Part shown: positions 3,835 through 49,947 of the stretch, piece by piece
Layout of the letters: each line of letters begins with the position of its first letter
Numbering within the stretch: position 1 is the stretch's first letter
Assembly: GCA_944388995.1 (NCBI GenBank)
Contig: CALXKN010000004.1
Coordinates: 6,394-70,393 of the forward strand
Reading direction: 5' to 3'
Length of the DNA stretch: 64,000 bases
From: an uncultured Spirochaetota bacterium
Lineage (GTDB): Bacteria > Spirochaetota > Spirochaetia > JAFGXN01
Notes under the pieces: generated by a model
What the model saw: only the letters and a program-made list of their open reading frames with translations
Database searches by the model: none
Told to the model about the DNA's origin: nothing
Made by a program: the position numbers and the translations under genes

Positions 3835-3888
3835 CCGTCGCGATTCGCTCTAAAACGGTCATTTTCGGTTTTAATGAAAGGAGCGAAT

Positions 3889-18120: not shown

Positions 18121-18955
18121 TAAAATTGAAAATTTGGTATTACAGGATCCCGGTAAAAGAGGGTTTCCGCGCTTTGCCGTTCCGGGAATGTACCGTCGGG
18201 CGGCGGAGTCTCTTTTTTTTGCGTCGTCAGTATGGATGGTTTCCGGATTTTGGATTCTTGGGGCAGGCGCCTTGGAAACCGACGGACCTCCGGGAACGGT
18301 GGTTTTGGCATCCGCTTTGAAACAATTAAAAATTCCGGTCAGAGTTTTTACCGATGCACACTCCGTCGGAATTTTTCACTCCGCTTCGGCCGCTCTCGGA
18401 TTGACTGATCTTCCGGTTGACGGTGCGGATCATTTCGCATTCCGTTCAGGAGAAATTGCGCCGTCGCATTTTATCGCGTTGGAGCGTCCCGGAAAAGCTG
18501 TTGACGGAGAGTGTTATAATTTCCGGGGAGAGTCGGTATCCCGGTTTACGGCCGATACCGATGCTCTTTTGAACCGGGTCAAATCGGAGGGGAGTGTTAT
18601 TGTTGCTGTCGGTGACGGCGGTAACGAGTTGGGAATGGGAAATTTCCGCAGGCAAACGGAAAGACTTTTTTCGGACGGACGGCCTTTTGCCGCTGTCGCC
18701 GTTTCCGATTTTCCTCTTTGTGCCGGAGTCAGTAATTGGGGAGGTTACGCTTTGGCAGCCATGCTTTCGTTGCTGAGCGGAAGGCCTTTGATGCCGACTG
18801 CTTCAACGCTTTCGGCGGTTCTGAAAGCGTGTGCGGCGGCCGGTTGCGTTGACGGCGTTACCGGGCGGAATGAAACTACGGTGGACGGACTGCCTCCCGG
18901 ATATGAGGAGGAAGTTTACGTGCAAATACGGAGGATTGCAGATGTTTCCGTTTGA
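18101..18955 (+). CDS. DUF4392-like protein (partner of DUF1445)
   Basis: Adjacent to and overlapping DUF1445; GDGGNELGMGN motif. The assignment rests mainly on recalled family co-occurrence. Confidence 0.4.
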   Translation: MKSTAFDKIENLVLQDPGKRGFPRFAVPGMYRRAAESLFFASSVWMVSGFWILGAGALETDGPPGTVVLASALKQLKIPVRVFTDAHSVGIFHSASAALGLTDLPVDGADHFAFRSGEIAPSHFIALERPGKAVDGECYNFRGESVSRFTADTDALLNRVKSEGSVIVAVGDGGNELGMGNFRRQTERLFSDGRPFAAVAVSDFPLCAGVSNWGGYALAAMLSLLSGRPLMPTASTLSAVLKACAAAGCVDGVTGRNETTVDGLPPGYEEEVYVQIRRIADVSV

Positions 18956-19592
18956 AAAAACGGCGGTGGGCGATTTCGCTGTTTCATGGAAATTGGCGGA
19001 AACGATTTCGGTTGAAACTTCTCGCCGGGTTTTGTGCTGTTATCAGGCTTTGAGAGAAAGTAAAAATCCTGTTTTGAAGCAAATCACAGATATCGTTCCG
19101 ACTTATTTATCCGTCACTGTTTATTTCAGAGAGGCCGGAAACGATGAAATTCAGAAGGCCGTTGCTTTGACGGATGAGTTTTTTTCCCGCTTGGATATGA
19201 ATTCTGCGGATAATGGAAAAGGTTCCGTCCTGACGGTTGAATTTCCGGTTGTTTATAACGGCGCGGATTTGGAGCGGGTTGCTGAAATCCACGGAATTTC
19301 CGTCGAAAGCGTCATTCGGCTTCACTGTTCGTCCGAATACCGCGTTGCCATGATCGGATTTAAACCGTATTTTCCGTATTTAATCGGATTGCCGGCTGAG
19401 TTGGAAACTCCGCGGTTGGATTCTCCGCGGCTGTCGGTTCCTGCCGGTTCCGTTGCCGTAGGCGGAGCGCAAACGGGAATTTATCCGGAGGTTTCGCCCG
19501 GCGGTTGGAATCTTCTCGGAGTAACTGATCCGGAATTGCTGAAACAGTTGCGCCCCGGCGATCGGGTTTTGTTTAAAGCTGTCAGTAAATAA
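18942..19592 (+). CDS. pxpB: 5-oxoprolinase subunit B (KipI / allophanate hydrolase subunit 1 family)
   Basis: GFKPYFPYLIGL...PRLSVPAGSVAVGGAQTGIYPEVSPGGWNLLG carboxyltransferase-domain signature; GGAGG RBS 7 nt upstream of ATG 18942. Confidence 0.7.
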   Translation: MFPFEKTAVGDFAVSWKLAETISVETSRRVLCCYQALRESKNPVLKQITDIVPTYLSVTVYFREAGNDEIQKAVALTDEFFSRLDMNSADNGKGSVLTVEFPVVYNGADLERVAEIHGISVESVIRLHCSSEYRVAMIGFKPYFPYLIGLPAELETPRLDSPRLSVPAGSVAVGGAQTGIYPEVSPGGWNLLGVTDPELLKQLRPGDRVLFKAVSK

Positions 19593-19604
19593 AAAGGAGA
19601 AAAA

Positions 19605-20324
19605 ATGGTTGTCAACTGCGATATCGGGGAGAGAGGAGTCAATCATCCGACAGATTTAAAGTTAATGACTCTTATTTCAACCGCCAATATTGCCTGCGGC
19701 GGGCACGCCGGAGATCGGGAAAGCGTCGACGCTTTTTGCGCATTGGCAGATAAGAATAACGTAACCGTTTCAGCGCATCTGTCCTATCCCGATAAAGAAA
19801 ATTTCGGGCGGATTTCCATGAAAATCGATCCGGAACGATTAGCGGATTCTCTTTCCGAACAATATGAATTGATGCCTCCGGCAGTAAAACGTATCAAATT
19901 TCACGGAGCGCTTTACAATGATGCTGTCGCCGAAGGCCGGCTTGCTTCTTTTTTGACAGAATGGATGAAACGGAATGCCGTCAATGAAGTCATTGCACCG
20001 AATGATTCTGCGTTGGCGGCGGCGGCACGGAACGCCGGAATTAAGGTTGAGGCGGAGGGCTTTGCCGAACGACGGTATATTTGGGATCCTCGGACGCGGC
20101 AGCTGACTTTGATGCCGCGCCGTTATCCGGAGGCGTCAATAAAAAATTTAAAGGAAGCGGTTGAACAATCCGTGCGGATGGTGCGTTCCGGAGAAGTGAC
20201 GGCATTTGTTGAAACCGGCGGGGAGTGGATTGAGCGTCTCTGTCCGATTGTTGTCGAAACGGTCTGCATTCATTCCGATTCTGTGATTGCTGTGGATTTG
20301 GCGGAATTGTTACGGAAATGCTGA
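19605..20324 (+). CDS. pxpA: 5-oxoprolinase subunit A (LamB/YcsF family)
   Basis: MVVNCDIGE...ISTANIACGGHAGD typical LamB/YcsF N-terminus; AAGGAG RBS. Confidence 0.75.
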   Translation: MVVNCDIGERGVNHPTDLKLMTLISTANIACGGHAGDRESVDAFCALADKNNVTVSAHLSYPDKENFGRISMKIDPERLADSLSEQYELMPPAVKRIKFHGALYNDAVAEGRLASFLTEWMKRNAVNEVIAPNDSALAAAARNAGIKVEAEGFAERRYIWDPRTRQLTLMPRRYPEASIKNLKEAVEQSVRMVRSGEVTAFVETGGEWIERLCPIVVETVCIHSDSVIAVDLAELLRKC

Positions 20325-21148
20325 AAGAAGTCGCACCCGGATTTTCCAGAAAAGTCTCCTTACCTGTTTACGGTCTGCAGGATCGCGGTATTGCTCCCGG
20401 GGGAGCGGCTGACCGGTTTTCGTTAGAGTGCGCGCTCTCTGTTTTGGGCGCCGGCGGAGATTCGTGGGAGGCCTATGAGTCGGTTGTGCCGGGACGGTGG
20501 GAGTGGGATGAGGATTCTTTTGCGGTTATGACCGGCGCTCCGTGCAAAAATGCTCTTCTGTGTCTGCCTTCCGGCGGAGCGGAACCGGTTGCGGAAGGAG
20601 TTCCGTTTTTTGCTCCTGCCGGTTCGCGGTTGAACTGCGGTGAACGGATAAAAGGGTTTCGGATTTATTTGACATCGGTGAAAAAAACGGAAATTCCTGA
20701 TCCGATCCGCCGCCGCCTGCTTCCGGTTGAAGAACGGTATGCCTGGGCGGAATTCGGCTGTATCCGTGTTGTTCGGGGACCGGAAGCCGCATTACTGAAG
20801 GATCCGTCGGTTTTCTGCCGTTCTTATTGGAAAATTTCAGTAAAATCTGATCACAGCGGATTGAGATTGGAAGGAATTGTACCGGAAACGGATTCGCTAA
20901 ACATGATTTCCGATGCGGTTGCCGATGGAACCGTTCAGTTGACGCCGCAAGGTCCGATTGTGTTGTTGCACTCACGGCAGACAGTCGGCGGGTATCCGCG
21001 GATTTACAACGTGATTTCGGCCGATGTTGATTTGCTGGCGCAATACATGCCGGGACAAATCATTCATTTCAGGGAAATTGATATCGGTGAAGCACGGCGC
21101 ATTAATGAAGAAAAAAAACTGTCGGCAGTTGCTTTTGAGACAGAATAA
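20318..21148 (+). CDS. pxpC: 5-oxoprolinase subunit C (KipA / allophanate hydrolase subunit 2 family)
   Basis: RQTVGGYPRIYNVISADVDLLAQ signature of KipA-type proteins. Confidence 0.7.
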   Translation: MLKEVAPGFSRKVSLPVYGLQDRGIAPGGAADRFSLECALSVLGAGGDSWEAYESVVPGRWEWDEDSFAVMTGAPCKNALLCLPSGGAEPVAEGVPFFAPAGSRLNCGERIKGFRIYLTSVKKTEIPDPIRRRLLPVEERYAWAEFGCIRVVRGPEAALLKDPSVFCRSYWKISVKSDHSGLRLEGIVPETDSLNMISDAVADGTVQLTPQGPIVLLHSRQTVGGYPRIYNVISADVDLLAQYMPGQIIHFREIDIGEARRINEEKKLSAVAFETE

Positions 21149-21157
21149 GGAGTTTAT

Positions 21158-21991
21158 ATGGATATTTGGTATGCAGACGGGAAATTCGTTCCGGAAGACG
21201 AGGCTTTTGTTTCGGCAAGAGATCTGGCTGTTTTGCGCGGATTCGGGGTGTTTGATTTTTTGAGAACCTATCACCGGAAACCGTTTTATTTGGAGGCGCA
21301 TATCGATCGCTTTTTCCGTTCGGCGGACGTGATCGGACTGAAAATTCCGATGAGCAAAAAAGAGACGGCCTCCGTGATCGAAGAGACGCTTTCGCGCAAT
21401 CCTCATCTTGAGGAGGCTAATATCCGGTTTGTCTTTACCGGCGGAAGCAGTCCCGACAATACTTTGCCGGCTGATAATGCCGGAAAATTTTACGTCATGG
21501 TCAGCCGTAAACAGGAGTGTCCTGCGTCGTGGTACAGCGACGGAGTGAAAACGATAACTGTTGATCAAAAACGCGCCTTTCCAGAGGCCAAGAGTATTGA
21601 TTACATTGCCGCAATTCAGGCGCAGCGCCAGGCAAAGAGTGTCGGCGCCGTTGAAGCGTTGTATACAGATGAAAAAAAGCGGGTTTTAGAAGCAACCACT
21701 TGTAATTTTTTTATTGTTAAAAACGGGAAATTGGTGACTCCCGGAGACGGAATCCTCCGCGGAATTACCAGAATGGCGTTACTGGAACTTTTAGACGGAA
21801 AGATTGATGTTGAAATCCGGGATATCAGTTTAAATGAGGCGCTTGATGCGGATGAAGCATTTATTACGGCTTCCAATAAGGAAATTGTTCCGGTTGTCAG
21901 AATCAATGACAGTGTTATCGGAGACGGAAAAGTCGGTAAAACTGTTAAACAGGTAACGGCTTGGTTCCGGGAAATGACGGACAGGTATTGA
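21158..21991 (+). CDS. class IV aminotransferase (D-amino-acid or branched-chain aminotransferase)
   Basis: FVSARDLAVLRGFGVFDFLRTY fold-type IV PLP aminotransferase N-terminus; about 277 aa; immediately upstream of alr. Confidence 0.7.
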   Translation: MDIWYADGKFVPEDEAFVSARDLAVLRGFGVFDFLRTYHRKPFYLEAHIDRFFRSADVIGLKIPMSKKETASVIEETLSRNPHLEEANIRFVFTGGSSPDNTLPADNAGKFYVMVSRKQECPASWYSDGVKTITVDQKRAFPEAKSIDYIAAIQAQRQAKSVGAVEALYTDEKKRVLEATTCNFFIVKNGKLVTPGDGILRGITRMALLELLDGKIDVEIRDISLNEALDADEAFITASNKEIVPVVRINDSVIGDGKVGKTVKQVTAWFREMTDRY

Positions 21992-21995
21992 TTTC

Positions 21996-23141
21996 ATGGA
22001 TTCCCGATTTTTCCCTCGCGCGGAAATCGATTTAAAGGCGCTTGCCGGCAATTACCGTCGGTTGAAAGCGTTGATGGCGCCGACGGCGCGGATGGCGGCG
22101 GTAATCAAAGCGGACGCATACGGTCACGGAGCCGTCAGGACGGCCCGGACGGCGTTAAACGAAGGCGCTTCCTTTTTGGTTGTTGCCCGGCCGGAAGAAG
22201 CGTTTGAACTGAGGGCGGCGGGCATCGGCGCGCCGGTTCTGCTTTTGGGTGCGCTGCCGCCGGAAAACGTGCGGGAAGCCGCCGAGGCCGGAATCACGTT
22301 GTCGGTCAACGGATTTGATGATGCGCATGAATTGAGCAGCCGGCTCGGCGGCGCTTCGGTGAAGGTTCACCTCAAAGTCGATACGGGCATGGGGCGGCTT
22401 GGGTTTTCTTTTAACGAATTCAGTGCTGATATTTCCGATGCGCTGCGAACGGTTCGTTCGGTTGCCTCGTTGCCGGGAGTGGAACTCGAAGGACTCTACA
22501 CTCACTTTGCTTCTGCTGATGCCGCCGAAGAAGAGACCGCTTTTTGCCTTACCCAATTTGACAGTTTTTCGCGGCTGATTCGGATTTTAGAAAAAGAGAA
22601 TCTGCGCCCGCCGATTTGTCACTGCGCCAACAGTGCGGCGACGCTGCGATTTCCTCAAATGCACCTCGATATGTGCCGCGTTGGCATTGTACAATACGGT
22701 TTGCGTCCGTCGGAATTTGTCGATGTCGCCGCACTCGGTTTCCGTCCTGTCATGACACTGCGTTCGCGAATCATTTATCTCAAAGAGGTTCCAGCCGGAT
22801 TTCCCGTCAGTTACGGTTCGGTGTGGAAAAGCCGGCGTCCGTCGCGGATTGCGACCGTAGCCGTCGGTTACGGTGACGGTTACCGCCGCTGTCTCTCCAA
22901 CTGCGGGGAGATGCTGCTGCGCGGCAAACGGGTGCCGGTTGTCGGACGGGTGTGCATGGATCTGACGATGATTGACGTCACCTCCGTTCCCGAAGCGGCC
23001 GTCGGGGACGAGGTGACCGTTTGGGGTGTTGAGGGAAGCGAAACGCTGTCGGCCGACGAAGTTGCGGCGGCGGCCGGCACCATCGGCTACGAAATGACAA
23101 CCGGATTAAACGTCCGCGTGCCGCGGATTTTCAAGGAGTGA
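21996..23141 (+). CDS. alr: alanine racemase
   Basis: AVIKADAYGHG (PLP-lysine motif) and overall Alr length. Confidence 0.85.
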   Translation: MDSRFFPRAEIDLKALAGNYRRLKALMAPTARMAAVIKADAYGHGAVRTARTALNEGASFLVVARPEEAFELRAAGIGAPVLLLGALPPENVREAAEAGITLSVNGFDDAHELSSRLGGASVKVHLKVDTGMGRLGFSFNEFSADISDALRTVRSVASLPGVELEGLYTHFASADAAEEETAFCLTQFDSFSRLIRILEKENLRPPICHCANSAATLRFPQMHLDMCRVGIVQYGLRPSEFVDVAALGFRPVMTLRSRIIYLKEVPAGFPVSYGSVWKSRRPSRIATVAVGYGDGYRRCLSNCGEMLLRGKRVPVVGRVCMDLTMIDVTSVPEAAVGDEVTVWGVEGSETLSADEVAAAAGTIGYEMTTGLNVRVPRIFKE

Positions 23142-29227: not shown

Positions 29228-30918
29228 TGAAAAAAAGATTTCTGTTTTTATTGCTGTTGCCGTCGTTTTTAACCGCTCAAGCCGCATTTCCGCAGAACGT
29301 TTCGACTTCTCTCAGCCGTTCGGAGTCATATGTCGGCGAAACAGTCTATCTCTCGTTTTCTTTGCAAACGGAAGAAAAACCGGTTTTAAAGCCGCTGCGC
29401 GCGGTTTTGGGCTTGAAAATTGAGTATCAAGGGGAGAATGTTTCGACTCAGGTGACGACAACAATCGTCAACGGCCGCCGTCAAACGCGGACAGTGTACC
29501 AATACCGCTTTACTTACGCCGTAACGGGGGAGAAACCGGGCGTTTATATCATTCCGCAAACGACGGTTTCCGTCGGCGATCGGGAAATGAGTACATCTCC
29601 GGCTAAGCTGACAGTAAAGGAGATTGAGCGCAATGAAAAGTATCGGTTGATATTGAGAGTCGAAAACGGAGAGCGCGTTTATGTCGGCGAATCGGTTGAT
29701 TTGACTGTCGAATTGGAAATTTCCTCCGAAATCGGGACTCCGGAAATTGAAATTCCGTTTCTAAACGGAACTGAGCTTTCACCTGTCAAAAATTACACGG
29801 AGACGGATGCCGGAAATATCAAAATTAACGACGGCTATTTTCCCGTTAAAAGGGAAGAGGCGGTCCGTTCAAGAGCGGTTTTTTCTGCCCGTCTGCGTTT
29901 TGCAGCGCAAACACCGGGAGTTTATTCGTTCGATGAGGCAAGAGCTTCGTTTCGAGCGGTGACATCCGTCCGCGAATCGGTCGATATTTTCGGCCGTACG
30001 GTTGCTGACAAACAGTACGAGTCGGTTGTCATTCCGGCGGAGAGCGGTCAGTTGGAAATTCTTGCGCTGCCGCAGCCTCAACCGGCGAATTTTTCCGGTA
30101 TTGTCGGCGTTCCGCGTTTGAGTGCCGAAGCCGATTTGACTGAAGCGTTTGTCGGTGATCCGATTACTTATCGGCTGACGGTCGAAGGTGTAGAAAACGT
30201 TCCTTCGGATTTACCGCCGTTGAATCGGATCGATTCGTTTGAGTCGCACTTTCGGATTCCCGAACACCATTCGCCGGCAATGAATGAGAACGGTAAAACG
30301 GTCTTTGTCTACACCATCCGTCCGCTTTCGGCTGATGTCGATGAAATTCCCGCTTATCCGTGCGTTGTTTTTAATCCCGAATCGGAGAGTTACGAAACCG
30401 TAACGGCGTCAGCGCTGCCGTTAAAGGTGAATCCGTCGCCGGCTTTAGTCGAAGAACAAATTGAAGAGTTTTCGTTTGATTCCGCCGAACGGGAAAAAGT
30501 ATCGATGGAAAAAATCGAAAACTTGCTGCCAGCCAATCCTTCTGCTTCGGCGTTATTAAAAAAGGAGAGTCGGTTTCCGTATCGTCCGTTGTTTTGGATT
30601 GTTTACGCGGTTTCGTTTGTTATTGCATTGATACCGATTGCGGCAGCTGTTATTTTGTGTCTTCGTAAACGCCGTTCGCCGACTCTTGCTTCCCGTAAGA
30701 GAGAGCTGCTGCAGCGGTTTGAATCTCTTCTTCGACGAAACGATGGAAAGAAGCTTGAATCGTTCCTCAATCTTTTGAATGAGTACGATGATGTTAAAGC
30801 GGTCTGTCCGGTGTGTTCGATCATCGAAGATGAGGTTGAACGGGCGCTTTTTTCCGGAAGCGCCGGTGAATTCGACGCCGGAGTGGCGTTTGCGAGGTTG
30901 AAGGAGGGACTGCGATGA
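29221..30918 (+). CDS. batD: BatD-like oxygen-tolerance protein
   Basis: Signal peptide, about 565 aa, C-terminal TM (LFWIVYAVSFVIALIPIAAAVILCL); canonical position. Confidence 0.65.
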   Translation: MVMKKRFLFLLLLPSFLTAQAAFPQNVSTSLSRSESYVGETVYLSFSLQTEEKPVLKPLRAVLGLKIEYQGENVSTQVTTTIVNGRRQTRTVYQYRFTYAVTGEKPGVYIIPQTTVSVGDREMSTSPAKLTVKEIERNEKYRLILRVENGERVYVGESVDLTVELEISSEIGTPEIEIPFLNGTELSPVKNYTETDAGNIKINDGYFPVKREEAVRSRAVFSARLRFAAQTPGVYSFDEARASFRAVTSVRESVDIFGRTVADKQYESVVIPAESGQLEILALPQPQPANFSGIVGVPRLSAEADLTEAFVGDPITYRLTVEGVENVPSDLPPLNRIDSFESHFRIPEHHSPAMNENGKTVFVYTIRPLSADVDEIPAYPCVVFNPESESYETVTASALPLKVNPSPALVEEQIEEFSFDSAEREKVSMEKIENLLPANPSASALLKKESRFPYRPLFWIVYAVSFVIALIPIAAAVILCLRKRRSPTLASRKRELLQRFESLLRRNDGKKLESFLNLLNEYDDVKAVCPVCSIIEDEVERALFSGSAGEFDAGVAFARLKEGLR

Positions 30919-31709
30919 AACGAGTTTTGATTCTTTTAATGGCAGCGCTCGCCGTTTCCGGATTCGCTTCGAACGCCGAAGAACGCATTGCCGAAGCTGA
31001 AAAATTTTTTCGGGAAGGTTTGGATTTAATGAAAACCGACGCTTCCGCGTCGGCTGCCGCGTTTGAAAAGAGCGAAGCGCTCTACCGCGCTTCTGCAGCC
31101 GAATTTCCCAATGCGGCGGTTTACCTCTGTCTCGGAAACGCGGCGTTTTTACGCCGGGATTTTCCGAAAGCCGTTTATTATTACCGCCAGTCGCAGTCGT
31201 TCAGCGACAACGCTTCCGTCCGCGCCGCTTTAAACGCAGCCCGCCTGCGTTTAAACGAAGAGATTGAAATTCCGATTCAGGTAAAAATTTTTGAAACCGT
31301 CTTCTTTCCTCACTACAGGATTCCGTTTTCCGTGCGTGCGGCTGCCTTTCCCGTACTGCTTTTCGCCCTGTCGCTTCTTGCCTCATCGGCGCTGCTTCGC
31401 GGCGGTTGGAAGCGGAAAAAGGCGGTCGCCGCCGTTTTGGCTTTTCTTTTGGCCGCGGACTTCCTTTCCGTGACTGTGACCGTTGCTGAAAAAACCTTCC
31501 GCAGGGAAGGGGTCATTTTGAGTGAAACCGAAGGCCGCTCCGGCAACCACCTTGCTTACGACCCCGCTTACCTGCGCCCGGTTCCGGCAGGAAGCGAAGT
31601 GACGGTGACTGACGAACGGTTCGGCTGGATGCGGATTGTTTTGCGGGACCGCTCGCGTTGCTGGGTTCCGAAAGAGGCCGTCTCACTGATCGGCGATCCG
31701 CTTCAGTAA
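30915..31709 (+). CDS. batE: BatE-like TPR/SH3-type protein
   Basis: Signal peptide, TPR-like helices, internal TMs and C-terminal SH3-like GWMRIVLRDRSRCWVPKEAV. Confidence 0.55.
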   Translation: MKRVLILLMAALAVSGFASNAEERIAEAEKFFREGLDLMKTDASASAAAFEKSEALYRASAAEFPNAAVYLCLGNAAFLRRDFPKAVYYYRQSQSFSDNASVRAALNAARLRLNEEIEIPIQVKIFETVFFPHYRIPFSVRAAAFPVLLFALSLLASSALLRGGWKRKKAVAAVLAFLLAADFLSVTVTVAEKTFRREGVILSETEGRSGNHLAYDPAYLRPVPAGSEVTVTDERFGWMRIVLRDRSRCWVPKEAVSLIGDPLQ

Positions 31710-32936
31710 AAATACGGCAGCCTCGGTTTTGGAAACAAAACCCGTATCGCTCACCGTTCCGTCCGCGGAAATAATCAGCAGCCGGTTCGTATCGGTTTCA
31801 AATCCGCAGCCCGGCGCGGAAACGTCATTGACGGCAATAAAGTCGGCGCGGGCCTTTTCCATGCGCTTCACGGCGTCTTTGCGCAAAAGCGCTTCGTCGG
31901 CCTGCGGCAGCGCGCGGAACGCGGTGATTTGGCTTTCCGGCGACTGTTCCCGCATACGGTCGAGGATTTTGACAGTCGGAACCAATGTCACGGTGAGACT
32001 CCCGGTTCCGTGCGTCGGAATTTTCCCCTGAACGGAAACTTCCGGCTTCCAGTCTCCGACTGCCGCGGCGGCGATGATGCGGTCGTATTTGTTTTCCTTT
32101 AATTCTGTTTCAACGGCGGCCGCCATCTGATCGGCGGTTTCCGTTTTGATAATGCGCACATTGTCCGGCAGTCGGCACGCCGTTTTCCCCGCAATCATCG
32201 TTACTTCCGCGCCCGCTTTTTGAGCCGCTTCGGCGACAGCCGCGCCCATTTTTCCGCTGGAATTATTGGAAATCACCCGTACACTGTCAAGATATTCGAC
32301 GGTCCGTCCCGTCGTGACGAGGATCCGTTCGCCTTCCAGGAAACGGTCGCCGTGCGGTGAGTGCAGCCGGATTTTGACCTCCTTCAGAATGGTTTCTTCA
32401 TCGGGAATTTTGGCTTTTCCTTCTTCCATTCGGGGAGCGAGAACCGAAACGCCCCAGCTTCGTAACCGGGCCAGATTTTCCCTGACGGCGGGATGGTAAA
32501 ACATCGGTTCGTGCATGGAAGGAACCAGGACAATCGGAATCCCTTCGCCGAGCGCGGTTGTGGCAAAAGTCGTAACGGGGGTGTCGTCGATTCCGCAGGC
32601 GATTTTTCCGACAGTGTTCGCTGTCGCCGGAGCAATCAGCAGCAAATCGGCTTTCGTCTTCGTGTTTCCGGCAAAACAAACGTGTTCGACATCGCCGGTC
32701 AGTTCAAGAATCGGCTTGCGTCCGGTCGCCCAGTGCAGTAACTGAGGGGAGATGAGTCCGGCGGCAGCCGCGCTCATTACGGGAATGATTTCCGCTCCGT
32801 GCCGCATCAGCAGACGGGCCAGTCCGACGCTTTTCAGTACGGCGACGCTGCCGCAGAGCGCCAGGACGATGCGTTTTCCTTTTAAATCGGAAGAAAGGGT
32901 TCCGATAATGTCGGTTGACGGGTGGGGTTCAGCCAT
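31683..32936 (-). CDS. coaBC: bifunctional phosphopantothenoylcysteine decarboxylase / phosphopantothenate-cysteine ligase
   Basis: Flavoprotein N-domain KRIVLALCGSVAVLKS, DFP-domain C-terminal half; about 417 aa. Confidence 0.85.
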   Translation of the reverse strand: MAEPHPSTDIIGTLSSDLKGKRIVLALCGSVAVLKSVGLARLLMRHGAEIIPVMSAAAAGLISPQLLHWATGRKPILELTGDVEHVCFAGNTKTKADLLLIAPATANTVGKIACGIDDTPVTTFATTALGEGIPIVLVPSMHEPMFYHPAVRENLARLRSWGVSVLAPRMEEGKAKIPDEETILKEVKIRLHSPHGDRFLEGERILVTTGRTVEYLDSVRVISNNSSGKMGAAVAEAAQKAGAEVTMIAGKTACRLPDNVRIIKTETADQMAAAVETELKENKYDRIIAAAAVGDWKPEVSVQGKIPTHGTGSLTVTLVPTVKILDRMREQSPESQITAFRALPQADEALLRKDAVKRMEKARADFIAVNDVSAPGCGFETDTNRLLIISADGTVSDTGFVSKTEAAVFLLKRIADQ

Positions 32937-34098
32937 TTTCTGTCTCCGTAATTTTCTGTAAATCCTTTAAAAAACGGCGGACGGTCTTTTCCGTCACATG
33001 GGGCATAATGACGATACGCAAATACTCTCCGAAGAAGGAGATCGCCCAGCCTTTTGCCCGCAGTCGTTCGGAAAGAATTTCATTTGCGATTTTTGTCGAG
33101 CAAAAAGCGACGACGTTGAGCTGCGGTTCTTTTACACAGCGGATTCCGTCGATTCGGTCCAAACGTCCGGCAAGGGAACGGGCGAGGGACATCGATTTTC
33201 TGACGATTTTGATATAGCCGCTTTCGCCGAGTCTGAGGATTTGCGCCCAGTTGGCCAAAACCGCCGCGCCGCTGCGGGTTCCGACGAGCGTCAGATGTTC
33301 CGTTTCTCCTCCGGAAAGATAAGAGACGGGAAAGGCGACCCGTCCGGCAATTTCGGCGGAACGGTACAAAATGCAGCCGCCGGGAGTGAGTCCCCGTCCC
33401 ATTTTGTGGGGATCGATGGTGACGGAAGAGACGCCGGGAACCGAAAAATCAAACGGCTTGGAAGGAAACCCCGCTTTTTCCAAAAAAGGCAGAACGAAAC
33501 CGCCGAAAGCGGCGTCCGTATGAAGGTAGACGCCGTGTTTTTCAGCCAACGCTCCCAAAGCGGGGATATCGTCGACCGCTCCGGTTCCCGTGGTTCCGGC
33601 AATGCCGATCAACGCCAGCGTGTTTTCCGAAATAGCGGCGGCTGCCGCTTCGACGTCAATCGAAAAATCTTCTTTATGAGGGATAAAAATCAGTTTGAGA
33701 TCCATCATTTCGGCCGCTTTGCGGAACGAAAAGTGGGCGCAGTCGGAGAGAATCACTTCCCTCTGGTTGGAGGCGGACAGTTTTTTGGCCGTCAGTAGCG
33801 CCAGAATGTTGGCCTCCGTTCCGCCGGTCGTAAAAACGCCGGCGGCGGACGGATTTCCGAGCAGGGAGCCGAGCATTTCAACCGCCCGGCGTTCGATTTC
33901 CGCCGTCCCCGGACACAGCCCCGGATCGCCGAGGTTCTTTTCGATATAGCGGCGGAAAATGCGGGCGCAAAATGCCGGCGGATCGGAACACATACTGCCG
34001 ATAATTTTTCCGCTTCGAAATGATAAATCCCGTCGCAATTCTTTTTTCAGGATGCGGTTGATTTTCGCTTTCGGGAACGGCTTTTTCGGAAAAGGCAT
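32929..34098 (-). CDS. group II PLP-dependent decarboxylase, archaeal MfnA-type (probable L-aspartate/L-tyrosine decarboxylase supplying beta-alanine)
   Basis: FTTGGTEANILAL and ...DPHKMG (PLP-Lys) motifs; about 389 aa like MfnA; embedded between coaBC and panB. Confidence 0.65.
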   Translation of the reverse strand: MPFPKKPFPKAKINRILKKELRRDLSFRSGKIIGSMCSDPPAFCARIFRRYIEKNLGDPGLCPGTAEIERRAVEMLGSLLGNPSAAGVFTTGGTEANILALLTAKKLSASNQREVILSDCAHFSFRKAAEMMDLKLIFIPHKEDFSIDVEAAAAAISENTLALIGIAGTTGTGAVDDIPALGALAEKHGVYLHTDAAFGGFVLPFLEKAGFPSKPFDFSVPGVSSVTIDPHKMGRGLTPGGCILYRSAEIAGRVAFPVSYLSGGETEHLTLVGTRSGAAVLANWAQILRLGESGYIKIVRKSMSLARSLAGRLDRIDGIRCVKEPQLNVVAFCSTKIANEILSERLRAKGWAISFFGEYLRIVIMPHVTEKTVRRFLKDLQKITETENG

Positions 34099-34865
34099 CA
34101 GCGGTACGACTCGTTTTGAGAGGGATAATCGCCCGAGCGGACGTCGCGGACGAATGAGTGGACCGCTTCGATGATAACGCCGCAGAGATCCGCATAGCGT
34201 CTGACGAATTTAGCGCCCTTTTCTTCTTTCAGACCGAGCATATCGTTGACAACAAGAACCTGTCCGTCGCAGCCGTTGCCGGCGCCGATTCCGATTGTCG
34301 GAATGTCGAGCGACTCCGTAATTTCGGCCGCCAATGCGGAAGAGGTGCACTCGATCACAGTCATGACGGCGCCCTCTTCCTGAAGAGCCGCCGCTTCGGT
34401 TTTGAGCCTGATTTGTTCGTCCTCCTCTTTTCCGCGGACTTTGAAGTTTTCGGCTGTCTGCGGAAGAAGTCCGATGTGGGCGCACACGGGGATGCCGGCA
34501 TCGGTCAGCGCCCGGACAATTCCTTTGCGGTAGCCTTCCAGCTTAACGCCGTCGGCGCCCGCTTCAATCAGACGGCGGGCGTTTGCAACGGCGGTTTCCG
34601 GCGTTTCGTAACTGAGATGAGGCATATCGGTCCACACAAACGCATTCGGCGCGCCCGCGCGGACGGAGCGGGTGTGGTAAACCATCTGACCGACCGTTAC
34701 TTCCCGCGTTGATGAAACGCCTTGGAATACATTTCCCAAACTGTCGCCGACAAGGATACAGTCGATACCGGCTTTTTCAAGCAAGGAAGCGAACGCCGCG
34801 TCGTAGGCGGTCAGCATTGTCAGCCGTTCGCCCGTTTCTCGGTATTTCCCGAAACTTCGTTTCAT
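34098..34865 (-). CDS. panB: 3-methyl-2-oxobutanoate hydroxymethyltransferase
   Basis: RLTMLTAYDAAFASLLEKAGIDCILVGDSLGNV N-terminal PanB signature. Confidence 0.85.
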   Translation of the reverse strand: MKRSFGKYRETGERLTMLTAYDAAFASLLEKAGIDCILVGDSLGNVFQGVSSTREVTVGQMVYHTRSVRAGAPNAFVWTDMPHLSYETPETAVANARRLIEAGADGVKLEGYRKGIVRALTDAGIPVCAHIGLLPQTAENFKVRGKEEDEQIRLKTEAAALQEEGAVMTVIECTSSALAAEITESLDIPTIGIGAGNGCDGQVLVVNDMLGLKEEKGAKFVRRYADLCGVIIEAVHSFVRDVRSGDYPSQNESYR

Positions 34866-35611
34866 AAAATTCCCCTGACGGCTTTCTCCGCCTCTTTCAG
34901 AATGGCCGTATTATCGTATTCATCAAGAATTTTTCGGCGTTCTTCTTCGGAGAGTGCAGCCGTCTCTTTCAGTTTGCGGATTAAAAGCGGCAGCGCGCGG
35001 GTGATGTTGTCGACAATGGTGACCGTTCCCGAAACGGCCGTGCGCGAGAGCGGGTTCAGGTCGATGACGACGGTTTTCTTTCCTTCCCGGACAAGCGCTT
35101 CGGCGCGGTCGCCGTCTTCCAGCGGAACAATCACCGTGTCGGCGGCCGCAATACCGTTGCGGTCGACAATGCGCCGCGCGTGATCGAGTGAGGAAAGACG
35201 CAGCGTATCGGATTTCTTCACTCCCAAAACGGTTTTGACTCCGTGTTTTTTCAAATGCTTCAGAATCGCCCGTTCCCGTTTCGGCGTGCGGTAAAACAGA
35301 TTGATTTCGACGGCAACCGGCGAGATCCGTTCAATTTCGGCAATTTCATCGGGGCAAAGCGCCGCCGCATTTCCGTTGACCGAGAGAATCGGCCGTTCGG
35401 ATTCAAGAATCAGCGCCGCCGCCGCTTCGGCTGCCTTGAGCGCAAACGGTTTCGTCTCTTCTCCCAACAAATAATCGAACGCTTCCCCCCGTCCGTGGGC
35501 AATCAGTCCCGATTCGGCGACAATCGATTTTTTTCCGCCTTCCGTAATCAGATGGCGCATCAAAAGAGAATGGTAGCGCGGGTGACTCGGCGGAAGGTCT
35601 TTAAAGCTCAT
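34862..35611 (-). CDS. DUF137-family protein resembling archaeal 4-phosphopantoate--beta-alanine ligase (phosphopantothenate synthetase, PPS)
   Basis: SHPRYHSLLMRHLITEG...LIAHGRGEAFDYLLGE N-terminal pattern and about 249 aa size fit the COG1701/PPS family; operon context with PoK-like kinase, panB, coaBC. Confidence 0.5.
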   Translation of the reverse strand: MSFKDLPPSHPRYHSLLMRHLITEGGKKSIVAESGLIAHGRGEAFDYLLGEETKPFALKAAEAAAALILESERPILSVNGNAAALCPDEIAEIERISPVAVEINLFYRTPKRERAILKHLKKHGVKTVLGVKKSDTLRLSSLDHARRIVDRNGIAAADTVIVPLEDGDRAEALVREGKKTVVIDLNPLSRTAVSGTVTIVDNITRALPLLIRKLKETAALSEEERRKILDEYDNTAILKEAEKAVRGIL

Positions 35612-36510
35612 CGGATTCTGGCTCCTTTTTCGGCAACGGTTGAGATGAGTATATCACTTTTGAGATTCTTTTTCAGCAGTTTTTTTAATTTTTGCGCTTC
35701 CCTTTTGCCGGAACAGAAGGTGTAGACGCCGTCGCCGAACATCAGCATGGCGGCGCGTTTGCCGTAACTTTCCAAAAGAGCCGCCGCTTTGCGTCCGTTT
35801 TCGGAAAAAAGATCCGCTTCCGCCGAAAAACCGGCCGCTTCCGTCAAAAACCGTTGCGGCGACGATTCGTTTTTGAGGCGCAGCAGCCGTTCGCCGGCAG
35901 ATCGGTTAATCCGCTCCCGGATAAGGGGATCCGAAAGCGAGCAGACCGTTGAGAGCGGACCGAAGAGCGCAAACACGGCATAAACCGTCTCTTCCGGAAA
36001 AAAGCCGTCAATCAGACCGAACGGCGGCGCGCCCGGTTTCAGCCGCAGTTCAAAACCGCCCCGCTGTTCGCCGACGACGGTTCCCAATCCGGTTCTGCAC
36101 AAAACATCGGCGCTGTGGGCCGCTCCGACAGTCTGACTTTCATCAAGAGGGGAACCGTAAAGCCGGTTCAGCGCCAACGCGAGACTCAGCGCGCCTGCCC
36201 CCGAAGTTCCGAAGCCGGCTCCCTGCGGTACGTTTACGCGGTGCGCGATTTTCAGCGGTTCGGGAGGAATTCCGGCGGCGGCGAAAAACAGCTCGGCTGT
36301 TTTCAGAGAAACGGGCGCAAAGACGCGGCGACCGTTGATGAGGACGATACTCTCCGATCGGAAACGGCATCGGCGGACAGCGGTGAAAGTTCCCTTGCCG
36401 ATACAAAAACCGGCTCCCAAGGAGCCGGTCTGCAGCGGATTCTCCGAGGCGTCTTTGATTGTAAAAAATCCCGTTATATGAGCGGGGCAGAAAGATTTCG
36501 CTCTGCGCAT
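35608..36510 (-). CDS. GHMP-kinase family protein resembling archaeal pantoate kinase (PoK)
   Basis: N-terminal CPAHITGFF and GHMP motif II PQGAGFGTSGAGALSLALALN; about 300 aa; context. Confidence 0.5.
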   Translation of the reverse strand: MRRAKSFCPAHITGFFTIKDASENPLQTGSLGAGFCIGKGTFTAVRRCRFRSESIVLINGRRVFAPVSLKTAELFFAAAGIPPEPLKIAHRVNVPQGAGFGTSGAGALSLALALNRLYGSPLDESQTVGAAHSADVLCRTGLGTVVGEQRGGFELRLKPGAPPFGLIDGFFPEETVYAVFALFGPLSTVCSLSDPLIRERINRSAGERLLRLKNESSPQRFLTEAAGFSAEADLFSENGRKAAALLESYGKRAAMLMFGDGVYTFCSGKREAQKLKKLLKKNLKSDILISTVAEKGARIR

Positions 36511-36544
36511 ACCTCAGTATAACGGTTTTTTTGAAAAAAGTAAA

Positions 36545-37480
36545 TCAGACCCACTTATCGATTTCCTGCGGATTGGCGATGATTTCCGCGACCCGATCCT
36601 GAAACGGCAGCAGCTGTCCGAAATCGACGGCTCTGTGATCGAAGGTGCAGCAGATCGGCAGGATTTTACGGATTCCGATTTGCTGTCTGCCGTTTGCGTC
36701 GGTGTACACGCCCGGGCGGTCCTGCAGCGCATTCAGACCGATAACGAAAACCTGAGGGGCGATGATTTCAAGGATGGAAACAGCGCCTTTTTGGTGGCGG
36801 TTAATGGATCCGATATTCGAAACCAAAGTCGTCGCGCCGAAAATATCGGCAGGCGTCAGTCTGTCTTTTTCCGGAATTTTATAGTACTCTTTGCGTCGTT
36901 GCCTGGAAATCCGCCGGACTCTGTGCTTGCCGATTAAATTCGGAATGATTTGTTTCAGAGAAGAAAATTTCAGGTTTTTCAAATCGGAGATTTTTTCGCC
37001 GAAACTGACCTTGTACAGCAACTCTTCGAGAATGGTATTTTTCAGCCGCCGGGCAATGTCGTTGATGTAATCGGTGATTTCATGAAGATTCTTGTTGCCG
37101 ACGTCTTTGACAATCGGAGTGAACATATCTCCGTTATCAAGCATCCACGGAAGCGCAATGTTGATTTCCCGGGCAATTTTATGCGTTCCGCGGGCTGTCG
37201 ATGCCGAGTACTCCAAGTTGGAGTTGAGTTCCGGCGCCGCCTTCAGTCCCTCGGCGATGACTTTCAGCATCAGCGTATTGAACGAGATTTTTCCGTTTTT
37301 TGAAAAACGTTCTTTATTATCCTGAAAATACTGAAAAAAATCGGTCATATCCGGTTCATAAACGTAGGAAACGTGGGGAATTTCATTCCACGATTTCTGC
37401 GTCATGTAAGCGACCATTTTTCTCTGGATTCCGAAAATCCGCTTTTCCGTAAAGGTAATCCCTTTTCCCATTTGACTCAT
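36545..37480 (-). CDS. stand-alone 2-oxoacid dehydrogenase E2-type acyltransferase catalytic domain (CAT-like), no lipoyl/PSBD domains
   Basis: C-terminal catalytic motif CCTFDHRAVDFGQ (DHRxxDG-like) and overall E2 catalytic-domain layout, beginning directly with the catalytic domain. Confidence 0.55.
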   Translation of the reverse strand: MSQMGKGITFTEKRIFGIQRKMVAYMTQKSWNEIPHVSYVYEPDMTDFFQYFQDNKERFSKNGKISFNTLMLKVIAEGLKAAPELNSNLEYSASTARGTHKIAREINIALPWMLDNGDMFTPIVKDVGNKNLHEITDYINDIARRLKNTILEELLYKVSFGEKISDLKNLKFSSLKQIIPNLIGKHRVRRISRQRRKEYYKIPEKDRLTPADIFGATTLVSNIGSINRHQKGAVSILEIIAPQVFVIGLNALQDRPGVYTDANGRQQIGIRKILPICCTFDHRAVDFGQLLPFQDRVAEIIANPQEIDKWV

Positions 37481-37568
37481 AGTGATTTGCTCCTTTAATT
37501 TGTATGGTTTATTATAACCGATTTTCTTTCAAAAATAATTAAAATAGTATTAAAAAAAACAAAAATAA

Positions 37569-37578
37569 TGCTATAATA
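37569..37578 (+). promoter_or_regulatory. extended -10 element (TGcTATAAT) upstream of pyrB-pyrI fusion
   Basis: tgctataat at 37569-37578 in an AT-rich divergent intergenic region; GTGAGGTGG RBS then ATG 37593. Confidence 0.35.
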
Positions 37579-37592
37579 AAGTGAGGTGGATT

Positions 37593-39176
37593 ATGTGCGC
37601 ACGGTTTAAAGGTCGCAGTCTGTCGGTTATTAATGATTTAAGCGTAGAGGAACAGATTTTCTTATATCAAAAGACACGCGAATTGAAAGAGGCGCACAAA
37701 GAGGGAAGGGGGCTTGATGCGTTCCGGCTGAAGAATCCGGAGGCGTCGTTCTACCTTCTGTTTATGGAAGACAGCACGCGGACAAAGGAGAGCTTCCGCA
37801 ATGCGGCCGCCTTTCACGGCGGGCGGGTCAATCTTTTCGATGCAGCCGGCTCTTCGTTTAATAAAATGGAAAGTATATCCGATACGGTTAAAATGCTGGT
37901 CGGTTACGCGCCTTCTTCGACCTTTATCATCCGCAGCCGGCTGGAAGGACTGACGGCGTTTTTGGACGATACCCTCGGCGAGTACTGCGTTCATCACGGT
38001 ATCGAGAAGCCGGTTTTCATCAACGCCGGCGACGGCAAACACGAACATCCGACGCAGGAGCTTCTGGATGAGTTCAGTTTTCTTGAACAGAAGAACTGGG
38101 ACCGCAGCGCCATTCACTTGGCGATTGTCGGCGATCTTTTTCACGGACGGACGGTTCATTCGAAGGTCAACGGTCTGAGAATTTTTGATTCCGTCCGGGT
38201 CGATTTGATTGCGCCGAAAGAGCTGATGATGCCGGAGCATTACATCGACGAAATGAAAGGCAACGGATTTTCGCTGCGGATTTTCGCTTCCATTGAAGAG
38301 TATTTGACTCAGGACGATACGGCCGGAATTTGGTATTTTACCCGTCTGCAGCTGGAGCGGATGGGCGATGAAGTTTTGGAAAAGGCCGGTCAGCTGCGCA
38401 AGGCGGTCACATTCCGCCGCGAGTTCATGCCGTTACTGAAACCCGGTACGCGGTTTTATCATCCGCTGCCCCGGCATAAAGAACATCCGACCGTGCCGAC
38501 GTTTCTTGACAACACCGCACTGAACGGCTGGGACGCCCAGTCGGTCAACGGCTATTTTACCCGGATCATCGAAATCGGACTGCTTAACGGTCTTTATGAC
38601 GGAGAGGCGGAGAAGAGCCTTCCTCCGGTTTGCGCAAAGCCCGCTCCGTCGTCTTCGTTCGTGAAAGAGATGCCGCTGAATCCCGAACCGAAGATTTCAG
38701 ACCGCAAAGTCGGCATTAAGCCGGTTGAGAACGGAATCGTTATTGATCACATCTCCTGCGGGCCGTCTATTGAAACGATTTGGAACAATATCGACCGAAT
38801 CCGGAAAGTGCTGCATCTGAATGTCCGCAGCTCTCACGGCGTTTATCACCGCAACGATCCGAACTTTTACAAAGGCATCATTTCTCTTCCCGATATTCTT
38901 TCGTTTTCCCAAAAAGAGGTCAAGAAACTGGCCGCCGTTTCTCCCGGCTGCACGATTAATTTTATCAAAGACTCCCGCGTGTATAAAAAACTGCGGTTGG
39001 ACATGCCGCCGCGCGTTTACGGGTTTTCCGAAATTTCATGCAAAAACGAAGCCTGCGTTTCCCATGCCTCGCACCATGAATCGGTGATGACGGAATTTTT
39101 GCGGGCGGGCGAACAGACTTTTAAGTGCAAATACTGCGAAAAGCCGTTTCACTACGATGAAATTTGGGATTTATGA
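37593..39176 (+). CDS. pyrB: aspartate carbamoyltransferase, fused catalytic (PyrB) and regulatory (PyrI) chains
   Basis: STRTKESF (STRT) and HPLPR carbamoyltransferase motifs in residues about 1-330; C-terminal about 150 aa has a PyrI-like VENGIVIDHI allosteric domain and a 4-Cys zinc domain (CKNEAC...CKYCEK). Confidence 0.7.
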   Translation: MCARFKGRSLSVINDLSVEEQIFLYQKTRELKEAHKEGRGLDAFRLKNPEASFYLLFMEDSTRTKESFRNAAAFHGGRVNLFDAAGSSFNKMESISDTVKMLVGYAPSSTFIIRSRLEGLTAFLDDTLGEYCVHHGIEKPVFINAGDGKHEHPTQELLDEFSFLEQKNWDRSAIHLAIVGDLFHGRTVHSKVNGLRIFDSVRVDLIAPKELMMPEHYIDEMKGNGFSLRIFASIEEYLTQDDTAGIWYFTRLQLERMGDEVLEKAGQLRKAVTFRREFMPLLKPGTRFYHPLPRHKEHPTVPTFLDNTALNGWDAQSVNGYFTRIIEIGLLNGLYDGEAEKSLPPVCAKPAPSSSFVKEMPLNPEPKISDRKVGIKPVENGIVIDHISCGPSIETIWNNIDRIRKVLHLNVRSSHGVYHRNDPNFYKGIISLPDILSFSQKEVKKLAAVSPGCTINFIKDSRVYKKLRLDMPPRVYGFSEISCKNEACVSHASHHESVMTEFLRAGEQTFKCKYCEKPFHYDEIWDL

Positions 39177-39578
39177 ACCGCTCCGCTTTTTGCGGCGGCG
39201 GAAAAGAAAATCAAAAATCCGTCTGAAAAAATTCGCGATGCGCTGTTTCAGCGTGGGATTTTTCAGGCGGTGAATGCGTTCGTATCCTTCATTCAGCTCC
39301 GCTTCCGTAAACGGCTTGCGGAAGATGTTTTCTTCGATTTCCAGTTCAAGCGACTTGATTTCCCCCGGATCGTCGATGACTTTTGCTTCTATCGATTTCC
39401 AGCCGAGCCGTTTGGCCGCTTCCAGACGCCGTTCGCCGGCAATCAGCCGGTAATCGGATGTCACTAAAATCGGGGAAAAAAGCCCGTGGCGGTTCAGGCT
39501 GTCGCTCAGCGTTTCGATGTTGCCGAGGTCTTTGCGTATGCGGTTGCGGACTTTGATGTCGCTGATTTTAACTTTCAT
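39171..39578 (-). CDS. small ParB/Srx-fold (ParB N-terminal nuclease-like) domain protein
   Basis: 135 aa; ...SPILVTSDYRLIAGERRLEAAKRLG (ParB box GERR motif). Confidence 0.5.
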   Translation of the reverse strand: MKVKISDIKVRNRIRKDLGNIETLSDSLNRHGLFSPILVTSDYRLIAGERRLEAAKRLGWKSIEAKVIDDPGEIKSLELEIEENIFRKPFTEAELNEGYERIHRLKNPTLKQRIANFFRRIFDFLFRRRKKRSGS

Positions 39579-49504: not shown

Positions 49505-49660
49505 TTTTGGGGCGTCCCGGCTTCGCCGTCGGCGCCCTTCGGACTCGGTCTGCCCGCCGATCGGCGGGCAGACGGCCTTACGGCCCCCTCCGGGCGCCTG
49601 ACGCCTTCGGCAGGGCTGCGCCTCCCTGCGCGGTTATTTTAGAAAAACAAATTCAGTTTT
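49505..49660 (+). repeat. GC-rich cluster of perfect stem-loops downstream of mfd (probable terminator / REP-like element)
   Basis: 11-bp perfect stem gtctgcccgcc-GATC-ggcgggcagac at 49548-49573 plus further short GC hairpins; T-rich ttattttag follows at about 49648. Confidence 0.4.
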
Positions 49661-49903
49661 GGCTAATCCAAAAGACCCCCATTAATATTAATGCCGTTTT
49701 TTTCCTTTTTCAGCGGAGCGCCTGCGGAACTCCGGCGCGAGGGATTGAAGCGGAAATGAGCGGCCGACGGAAAGAAGGCGCAGGGCAAAGCGGCAGCTTT
49801 GCCGCGGACGCCGGTAAGGGAGGCCGCGAATTGCAGCGGAAAGCCCGGTGCGCGCCGCAAGCGGCGCGCACGCGCCCGGAAGATAGAGGGAAAAAGGCTG
49901 TGC

Positions 49904-49932
49904 TTGCGCTTTCGGGTGGTTTGGGCTATAAT
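49904..49932 (+). promoter_or_regulatory. sigma70-like promoter (TTGCGC-17-TATAAT) for Hcy-MT/MTHFR gene
   Basis: ttgcgc 49904-49909, 17-nt spacer, tataat 49927-49932, ATG at 49948 (short leader). Confidence 0.4.
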
Positions 49933-49947
49933 GTCGCAGGGGTGCTT

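Follow-up and report, generated by a model that had tools for sequence, protein, structure and literature searches.

Genes for a predicted archaeal-type route to coenzyme A form an old and widespread operon in Spirochaetia

The subject of this analysis is a 64-kb stretch of DNA, referred to below as the window, from contig CALXKN010000004.1 of an uncultured bacterium that we take to be a member of Spirochaetia. A first-pass annotation of the window, made from the letters alone, had described six consecutive minus-strand genes at 31683-37480, and the open reading frame (ORF) listing contains all six at those positions. In the order of transcription they encode a stand-alone E2-like acyltransferase that consists of the catalytic domain only (36545..37480, 311 aa), a pantoate kinase of the GHMP-kinase family (PoK; 35608..36510, 300 aa), a phosphopantothenate synthetase, or 4-phosphopantoate--beta-alanine ligase (PPS; 34862..35611, 249 aa), the ketopantoate hydroxymethyltransferase PanB (34098..34865, 255 aa), an MfnA-type decarboxylase dependent on pyridoxal phosphate (PLP; 32929..34098, 389 aa), which is probably an L-aspartate decarboxylase, and CoaBC, the bifunctional PPCS/PPCDC (31683..32936, 417 aa). 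The last five genes overlap their neighbors, by 4 nt at PoK/PPS, 4 nt at PPS/PanB, 1 nt at PanB/MfnA and 8 nt at MfnA/CoaBC, and with overlaps of 1-8 nt the series from PoK to CoaBC is evidently translationally coupled, to judge from the gene boundaries. The E2-like gene is separated from PoK by a gap of 34 nt. The overlaps of 0-4 nt that had been claimed throughout are therefore found at three of the junctions, and both the E2-like/PoK gap and the 8-nt MfnA/CoaBC overlap fall outside that range. The same six-gene string is present on at least 18 independent metagenome contigs from ENA and Logan, and the six genes are collinear, with 65-89% amino acid identity, in an NCBI metagenome-assembled genome (MAG) of Spirochaetia, SUG3664, which is the nearest species-representative genome. 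This recurrence excludes an assembly artefact.

The gene at 35608..36510 belongs to the pantoate kinase family. Its best NCBIfam models are the two pantoate-kinase equivalogs, NF041122 (E = 1.9e-33) and NF040725 (E = 1.2e-32), from which the other GHMP models are separated by about 28 orders of magnitude (homoserine kinase, 1.5e-05; mevalonate kinase, 1e-04). The GHMP-kinase N-terminal domain PF00288 is matched at 3.2e-09, over its gathering score. In the PDB the best match is the Thermococcus kodakarensis PoK structure 6JBC (E = 1.9e-32, 34% identity), the next match having an E value of 0.0095, and the phosphate-binding motif PQGAGFGTSGAG aligns with FPNGYGFGNSAGG of 6JBC. Conservation was assessed with 52 archaeal PoKs and 80 archaeal PPSs from the fetched loci, using those columns that are at least 90% conserved in archaea. 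The window PoK is identical to the archaeal proteins at 35 of 39 such columns and keeps the residues aligned with S28, S104, H131, R155 and T186 of the T. kodakarensis enzyme. The four near-invariant columns that differ are E134, replaced by D, two V to T changes and one F to Y change, the other replacements being conservative as well. Family membership is plain from these comparisons, and pantoate is the predicted substrate of the kinase.

The assignment of PPS, which had been annotated at first as a DUF137/PPS-like protein, is equally firm at the level of the family. The protein matches PF02006 (PPS_PS) with an E value of 4.8e-66 and 222 bits against a cutoff of 26.4, exceeds the cutoff of the NF010324 subfamily model (328.5 versus 227 bits), and is 51% identical to the T. 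kodakarensis PPS structure 3WDK (E = 9e-67). At 69 of the 74 archaeal near-invariant columns it is identical to the archaeal proteins, and all five changes are conservative. It would be expected to ligate 4-phosphopantoate with beta-alanine. Profile searches placed neither the kinase in another GHMP family nor the ORF at 34862..35611 in an unrelated one.

The remaining three assignments also agree with those made at first pass, each protein scoring over an equivalog cutoff. PanB matches PF02548 at 9.6e-94 and TIGR00222 with 282.4 bits against a cutoff of 207.55. CoaBC matches TIGR00521 with 332.1 bits (cutoff 219.7) and both of its domains, PF02441 and PF04127, are recognized. The 3' end of this last gene overlaps, by 27 nt (31683-31709), a convergent gene for a 264-aa protein with no Pfam match (30915-31709), and the convergent overlap is also kept in three related loci (L001, L003 and L094). 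The decarboxylase scores 410.6 bits with the MfnA equivalog TIGR03812, for which the cutoff is 299.4. Its best PDB matches, at about 3e-69, are the Methanocaldococcus jannaschii L-tyrosine/L-aspartate decarboxylase structures 3F9T and 6JY1, and in the alignment with 3F9T the PLP-lysine motif DPHKMG is intact.

A search with PPS suggested at first that these genes had entered a narrow lineage by a recent transfer. About eight protein clusters are at least 69% identical to the window PPS, the next are at most 57% identical and mostly archaeal, and when the matches were considered by genome 79 of the best 80 loci were archaeal. A few WOR-3 bacteria also carry PPS. The suggestion was overturned by the searches with CoaBC and PoK. 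Among the closest CoaBC relatives beyond the window clade, with 52-58% identity, is that of Sediminispirochaeta smaragdinae DSM 11293 (54% identical to the window protein), a cultured spirochete whose complete genome was sequenced in 2010. In this genome (CP002116.1, locus L088) the order is PoK-PPS-PanB-decarboxylase-CoaBC, with CoaBC last, and the cluster is preceded, as in the window, by genes for PBP1a and a small ParB_N protein. The closest named relatives of PoK (37-46% identity) all belong to Spirochaetia, Spirochaetales or Sediminispirochaetaceae, and it is only near the bottom of the 120 matches listed that an archaeal PoK is found.

Inspection of further loci shows how the arrangement varies among spirochetes. 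Within the window clade the cluster is 60-79% identical, and a more distant member of this clade, L094, has the order M23-PBP1a-ParB_N-pyrBI-E2like-PoK-PPS-PanB-MfnA-CoaBC. Outside it, the Spirochaetales MAG GCA_016937215.1 (L095) carries PBP1a-ParB_N-TrkA-like-PoK-PPS-MfnA-CoaBC. An alternative order, PoK-PPS-CoaBC-PanB-FolD, is present in the Spirochaetia MAG GCA_024402405.1 (L096) and on a 3.8-Mb contig (L089), and in the latter a divergent gene for PanE (PanE/ApbA) adjoins the cluster on its upstream side. On the bacterium-like contig L090, positions 2284-4458 encode a single 724-aa protein in which PPS is fused, as the N-terminal part, to CoaBC; a PoK gene precedes the fusion and a HicA/HicB toxin-antitoxin pair is adjacent. 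This "Rosetta-stone" fusion in a bacterium-like setting ties PPS functionally to the next two steps. The first-pass annotation had offered two alternatives for the origin of the genes, horizontal acquisition and an under-recognized bacterial distribution. Of these the second has held, in that the operon is common in Spirochaetia, where it is old and widespread and extends to a cultured species, and the first has not, at least in the form of an isolated or recent transfer.

If 31683-36510 is a functional five-gene operon, the following sequence of reactions may be proposed. PanB, by its family, would convert 2-oxoisovalerate to ketopantoate, which a reductase encoded elsewhere, either PanE or IlvC, would reduce to pantoate. 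PoK would phosphorylate pantoate to 4-phosphopantoate, the MfnA-type decarboxylase would supply beta-alanine from aspartate, and PPS would join the two to form 4'-phosphopantothenate. CoaBC would then add cysteine and decarboxylate the product to yield 4'-phosphopantetheine, and PPAT and DPCK would have to be encoded elsewhere to complete CoA. The module is thus not complete in the sense first claimed for it, since ketopantoate reductase, PPAT and DPCK are not among its genes. The proposed pathway resembles the canonical bacterial route (panBCD and coaA of Escherichia coli; CoaA or CoaX) in that it begins from ketoisovalerate via PanB, passes through 4'-phosphopantothenate and uses CoaBC. It differs in that phosphorylation would come before condensation instead of after it, and in the enzymes themselves: PoK has no relation to PanK, nor PPS to PanC, nor the PLP-dependent decarboxylase to the pyruvoyl-dependent PanD.

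It is of interest to consider whether the operon replaces the canonical enzymes or merely supplements them, with PanC, a type I or type III PanK, or PanD encoded elsewhere in the same genome. The window covers only 64 kb of that genome, and a type III PanK that serves pantothenate salvage is present in some host-associated spirochetes. Nonetheless, just as the first-pass annotation had stated for the cluster, no homologue of PanC, PanD or CoaA was found there or anywhere else in the window, either by tblastn with the E. coli proteins or by a Pfam scan of its 53 large ORFs, and the same scan contained no CoaX, PanE, IlvC, CoaD or CoaE. Further, at seven related spirochete loci, for which flanking sequence of up to 10 kb in either direction from the matched gene was fetched, none of PanC, PanD and PanK is present; these loci are the five just described outside the window clade, L094 and another clade member, L007. 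The presence within the operon of a dedicated decarboxylase that would form beta-alanine also suggests self-sufficiency. A supplementary role for the archaeal-type route is therefore unlikely, although it is the strongest of the alternatives that we have considered, and replacement is what these observations favor.

A second uncertainty concerns the decarboxylase, which might act on tyrosine or another amino acid outside CoA synthesis, beta-alanine then coming from another source. TIGR03812 is named for the tyrosine decarboxylase MfnA, and the PDB molecule names give both tyrosine and aspartate as substrates of the M. jannaschii enzyme. But the gene is translationally coupled between PanB and CoaBC, its position is kept in S. 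smaragdinae and L095, and it is also found in a pantoate operon of Bathyarchaeia. Methanofuran, the product that the tyrosine-dependent role of MfnA serves, is a cofactor of methanogens. Moreover, Tomita et al. 2014 (cited in PMC6650551) showed that an archaeal homologue serves CoA synthesis as its aspartate decarboxylase. We regard a role outside CoA synthesis as improbable; the position of the gene in the operon, together with the dual activity named for the M. jannaschii structures, points to L-aspartate as the probable substrate and beta-alanine as the probable product.

A somewhat less probable alternative still is that the reactions follow the bacterial order. In this scheme the PF02006 protein would join unphosphorylated pantoate to beta-alanine, and the resulting pantothenate would be the substrate of the GHMP kinase, so that the net product would be the same and no 4-phosphopantoate would be formed. 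The family name used by Pfam and NCBIfam, "phosphopantothenate/pantothenate synthetase", reflects a historical ambiguity of this kind, and substrate preference is not fixed by sequence alone, with PoK only 34% identical to the characterized enzyme. Against this, the window PoK and PPS keep the near-invariant archaeal positions described above, and in the characterized T. kodakarensis system phosphorylation precedes condensation, according to the account given in PMC6650551. The PoK/PPS route of that organism rests on TK2141 and TK1686 (Yokooji et al. 2009, in the summary provided by PMC6650551). The spirochete genes resemble this system in belonging to the same two families, in keeping the family-invariant residues and presumably the same chemistry, and in drawing beta-alanine from a PLP-dependent decarboxylase rather than from a pyruvoyl-dependent PanD. 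They differ in that the host is a bacterium and in their arrangement: together with PanB and CoaBC they make up a single translationally coupled operon, whereas the T. kodakarensis genes are scattered in the genome; in addition, the spirochete window showed no archaeal-type PPAT or DPCK. As a whole, these comparisons favor the archaeal order, with 4-phosphopantoate as the likely intermediate.

Three lines of evidence bear on the inheritance of the operon within Spirochaetia: the shared address after PBP1a and ParB_N, a divergence that matches that of the flanking genes, and a base composition that does so too. When the window is compared with the lineages of S. smaragdinae and L095, identity is 38-40% for PoK, 47-50% for PPS and 47-54% for CoaBC, and the corresponding values for the flanks are 38-39% (PBP1a) and 43-50% (ParB_N). 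The GC content at third codon positions (GC3) is 0.60-0.65 in the five CoA genes and 0.59-0.68 in the flanks. Because of these agreements the operon appears to have been inherited vertically, and they indicate that it was probably already located after PBP1a-ParB_N in the common ancestor of these lineages. The picture that the PPS search had favored, with a recent archaeal transfer into one narrow spirochete lineage or a mis-binned archaeal contig, is very improbable and we reject it, since bacterial genes (the Bat operon, pyrBI, PBP1a, Mfd and RelA/SpoT) lie on both sides in one contiguous sequence, since GC3 and divergence match the flanks, and since the same cluster occupies the same address in the finished genome of a cultured spirochete.

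Where the operon came from before it was present in Spirochaetia may be approached through the fetched archaeal loci. In haloarchaea and methanogens at most PoK-PPS is found. In Nitrososphaerota, by contrast with these, at least six loci contain PoK-PPS-PanB-CoaBC in the same order and orientation as in spirochetes, and a Bathyarchaeia locus (L037, 9088-13623) contains a compact PoK-PPS-PanE-PanB-MfnA operon. The five genes in the spirochete order were seen together at no single archaeal locus fetched. The Nitrososphaerota and Bathyarchaeia operons (L013, L021, L026, L034, L060 and L037) share with the spirochetes gene order, orientation and the PoK motif "GLGT", with 39-45% identity for CoaBC, 40-48% for PanB and 46% for MfnA; they differ in that their genes, unlike the overlapping ones of spirochetes, are separated by short gaps. 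The "GLGT" motif includes the PoK position that aligns with Asp143 of T. kodakarensis, a residue that varies among archaea: of the 52 sequences compared, 41 have D, 10 have T and 1 has S. This position is Thr in 15 of 15 spirochete PoKs. Besides spirochetes, "GLGT" occurs only in Bathyarchaeia, most Nitrososphaerota and Lokiarchaeum, and all Euryarchaeota in the set have "GLGD". Phylogeny bore out this pattern in part. In the neighbor-joining tree of PoK the spirochetes form one group next to Nitrososphaerota and Bathyarchaeia, which is the expected topology, and in the CoaBC tree they are grouped (71%) among archaeal sequences and apart from E. coli Dfp. The PanB tree was uninformative. In keeping with the CoaBC tree, the spirochete CoaBCs are 32% identical to E. 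coli Dfp and 39-49% identical to archaeal CoaBCs. The synteny and the single PoK signature together favor a donor of the TACK type, and the most likely history, although not a proven one, is an ancient acquisition en bloc of a PoK-PPS-PanB-(MfnA/CoaBC) operon from such an archaeon.

The interpretation that emerges is that the five genes form a functional operon that would make 4'-phosphopantetheine by the archaeal route, transmitted vertically in Spirochaetia and likely of TACK-type origin. Several observations weigh against it. PoK falls far under the NCBIfam equivalog cutoffs (116 versus 500 bits and 113 versus 380). The names of the two models, panto_kin_Thplsm and panto_kin_Meth, indicate that they were apparently built for particular archaeal lineages, and for this reason we attribute the shortfall to divergence and not to another function. 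PPS narrowly misses the cutoff of the archaeal equivalog NF041123, with 287.9 bits against 300. The bacterial PoK and PPS homologues are known from their sequences alone, whereas the archaeal ones include characterized enzymes. According to the Pfam scan, ketopantoate reductase, PPAT and DPCK are not encoded in the window. As for the origin, bootstrap values in the PoK tree are weak (29% for spirochete monophyly and 37% for the sister relationship with TACK archaea), the PPS tree does not resolve and splits the spirochetes into two groups, and E. coli is the sole canonical bacterial reference in the PanB and CoaBC comparisons. Taking these points together with the evidence presented above, we assign this interpretation a probability of roughly 0.8.

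The sixth gene, that of the E2-like protein, stands apart from the others. The only domain recognized is PF00198, whose match is split in two by an insert of about 55 aa. The protein keeps the catalytic DHR motif. A Pfam scan revealed no lipoyl domain and no E3-binding (peripheral-subunit-binding) domain, and the scores with E2 equivalogs are far under cutoff (for example, 87.7 versus 722). Its relatives are likewise stand-alone proteins of about 300-320 aa: of 81 cluster representatives at E<=1e-30 most align nearly end to end and the rest are shorter fragments, with full-length E2 subunits appearing only as weak matches. An assignment as the E2 subunit of a 2-oxoacid dehydrogenase complex consequently fails on both domain architecture and equivalog scores. 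The first-pass annotation had counted this gene as a member of the operon. Only in the window clade (L007 and L094) does it adjoin the CoA genes, and there its conservation (88-89%) is the highest in the six-gene string; it is absent from the cluster in L088, L089, L090, L095 and L096, that is, at five of the seven related spirochete loci. It cannot, for that reason, be a core component. It is a clade-specific neighbor outside the conserved CoA module, and a functional link of its product to that module is not supported. The total GC content of the gene is low, 0.474, and since its GC3 is 0.593 this reflects amino acid composition rather than a foreign origin.

The E2-like gene may nevertheless share a transcript with the CoA genes. 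Upstream of it lies an AT-rich intergenic region (37481..37580), across which it faces the divergently transcribed plus-strand gene pyrBI. On the minus strand this region contains a perfect -10 sequence, TATAAT, at 37516-37511 and a strong ribosome-binding site, AAGGAG, at 37495-37490, which together suggest a promoter ahead of the E2-like gene; on the plus strand a pattern scan identified a promoter-like site for pyrBI at 37550-37577. In the 34-nt gap between the E2-like gene and PoK the same type of scan found no terminator-like site, and the gap holds a weak minus-strand promoter-like motif, TTTACT-17-TATACT, with 9 of 12 consensus matches (36516..36544), which abuts the PoK ribosome-binding site. 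Since the gap has no terminator and only a weak promoter match, and the E2-like gene is itself preceded by a perfect -10 sequence and strong ribosome-binding site, co-transcription is likely. The neighbor on the other side of the intergenic region encodes PyrB and PyrI, the catalytic and regulatory chains of aspartate carbamoyltransferase, fused in one protein of 531 aa (37581-39176, plus strand) that is 81-85% conserved in L007 and L094.

The rest of the window is an ordinary segment of bacterial chromosome, as judged from the Pfam scan, and proteins identical to some of those it encodes are found in NCBI MAGs labelled "Spirochaetia bacterium". Besides the pyrBI fusion it encodes PriA, Def, Fmt, RelA/SpoT, PrmC, RF-1, alanine racemase, PBP1a, an M23 peptidase and Mfd, as well as a MoxR-DUF58-BatA/B/D aerotolerance operon. 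Rfam and tRNA scans of the whole window gave no match, which argues against a riboswitch or an integration-site tRNA within it. The small protein with only a ParB_N domain (131-146 aa) is encoded directly downstream of PBP1a in each of four diverged spirochete lineages (window 39171-39578, minus strand; L088 422-862; L094 4004-4402; L095 6784-7179). On the plus strand at 17287-23141 are genes for a D-glutamate cyclase (in two ORFs), 5-oxoprolinase-like PxpB/PxpA/PxpC, a class IV aminotransferase and alanine racemase, which look like a cluster for D-amino-acid and 5-oxoproline metabolism. A 761-aa plus-strand product (49507-51792) fuses homocysteine S-methyltransferase and methylenetetrahydrofolate reductase domains, and another of 1396 aa (56896-61086, plus strand) has apolipoprotein-like helical repeats, below the Pfam cutoff, and a C-terminal DUF6115. 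A SET-domain protein resembling lysine methyltransferases is also encoded on this bacterial chromosome (62205-62810, minus strand).

The PoK/PPS route has been proposed as a marker that separates the two prokaryotic domains, and the archaeal pathway is feedback-regulated at ketopantoate reductase, the bacterial pathway at PanK. As late as 2019 PoK and PPS were called "unique to the archaea", and Bathyarchaeota were listed among the archaeal groups without homologues of either (Shimosaka et al. 2019, PMC6650551); the L037 operon shows that some Bathyarchaeia do have them. Among bacteria, a single exception, an unexpected one, has been published, that of the sponge-symbiont Candidatus Entoporibacteria (Ca. 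Poribacteria; Thomes and Lescure 2020, PMC7883664). According to that study these bacteria lack PanC and PanK, their CoaBC and remaining downstream enzymes are of bacterial type, and coexistence with the bacterial route has never been observed; mis-annotation of such proteins as "GHMP kinase" was pointed out, and the poribacterial PoK and PPS were placed nearer Euryarchaeota. Spirochetes are like Poribacteria in being bacteria that carry both enzymes. They belong to another phylum, Spirochaetota, and the set differs in including a cultured organism with a finished genome and in that the operon also holds an MfnA-type decarboxylase. Since the spirochete PoK has the signature found in TACK and Asgard archaea, whereas the poribacterial proteins are nearer Euryarchaeota, the two acquisitions were probably independent. 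Literature searches, including searches by KEGG and COG identifiers, found no paper linking PoK or PPS to spirochetes. Public annotation is partly right: JGI labels many of the homologues "pantoate kinase", and at NCBI one Sediminispirochaetaceae protein has this label while others are named "GHMP kinase" or "hypothetical protein".

The pathway itself is known from Archaea, and what these results add is that spirochetes are a second, broader and experimentally tractable bacterial home for it, in which the operon also brings an archaeal-style supply of beta-alanine. With a cultured host whose genome is finished, the chemistry, essentiality and regulation of the pathway become directly testable in a bacterium. 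There is also a practical consequence, in that metabolic reconstructions that seek only PanC and PanK would mistake these spirochetes, some of them apparently gut-associated, for pantothenate auxotrophs. We suggest tentatively, and with confidence a little short of even, that much of Spirochaetia, including S. smaragdinae, lost or never had PanC, PanK and PanD and makes CoA solely by means of an operon captured whole, early in spirochete evolution, from a TACK-type archaeon. If this is true, these spirochetes would be the first bacteria in culture to depend on the "archaea-specific" PoK/PPS chemistry as their essential route, and they would represent a second acquisition of it, independent of the poribacterial one.

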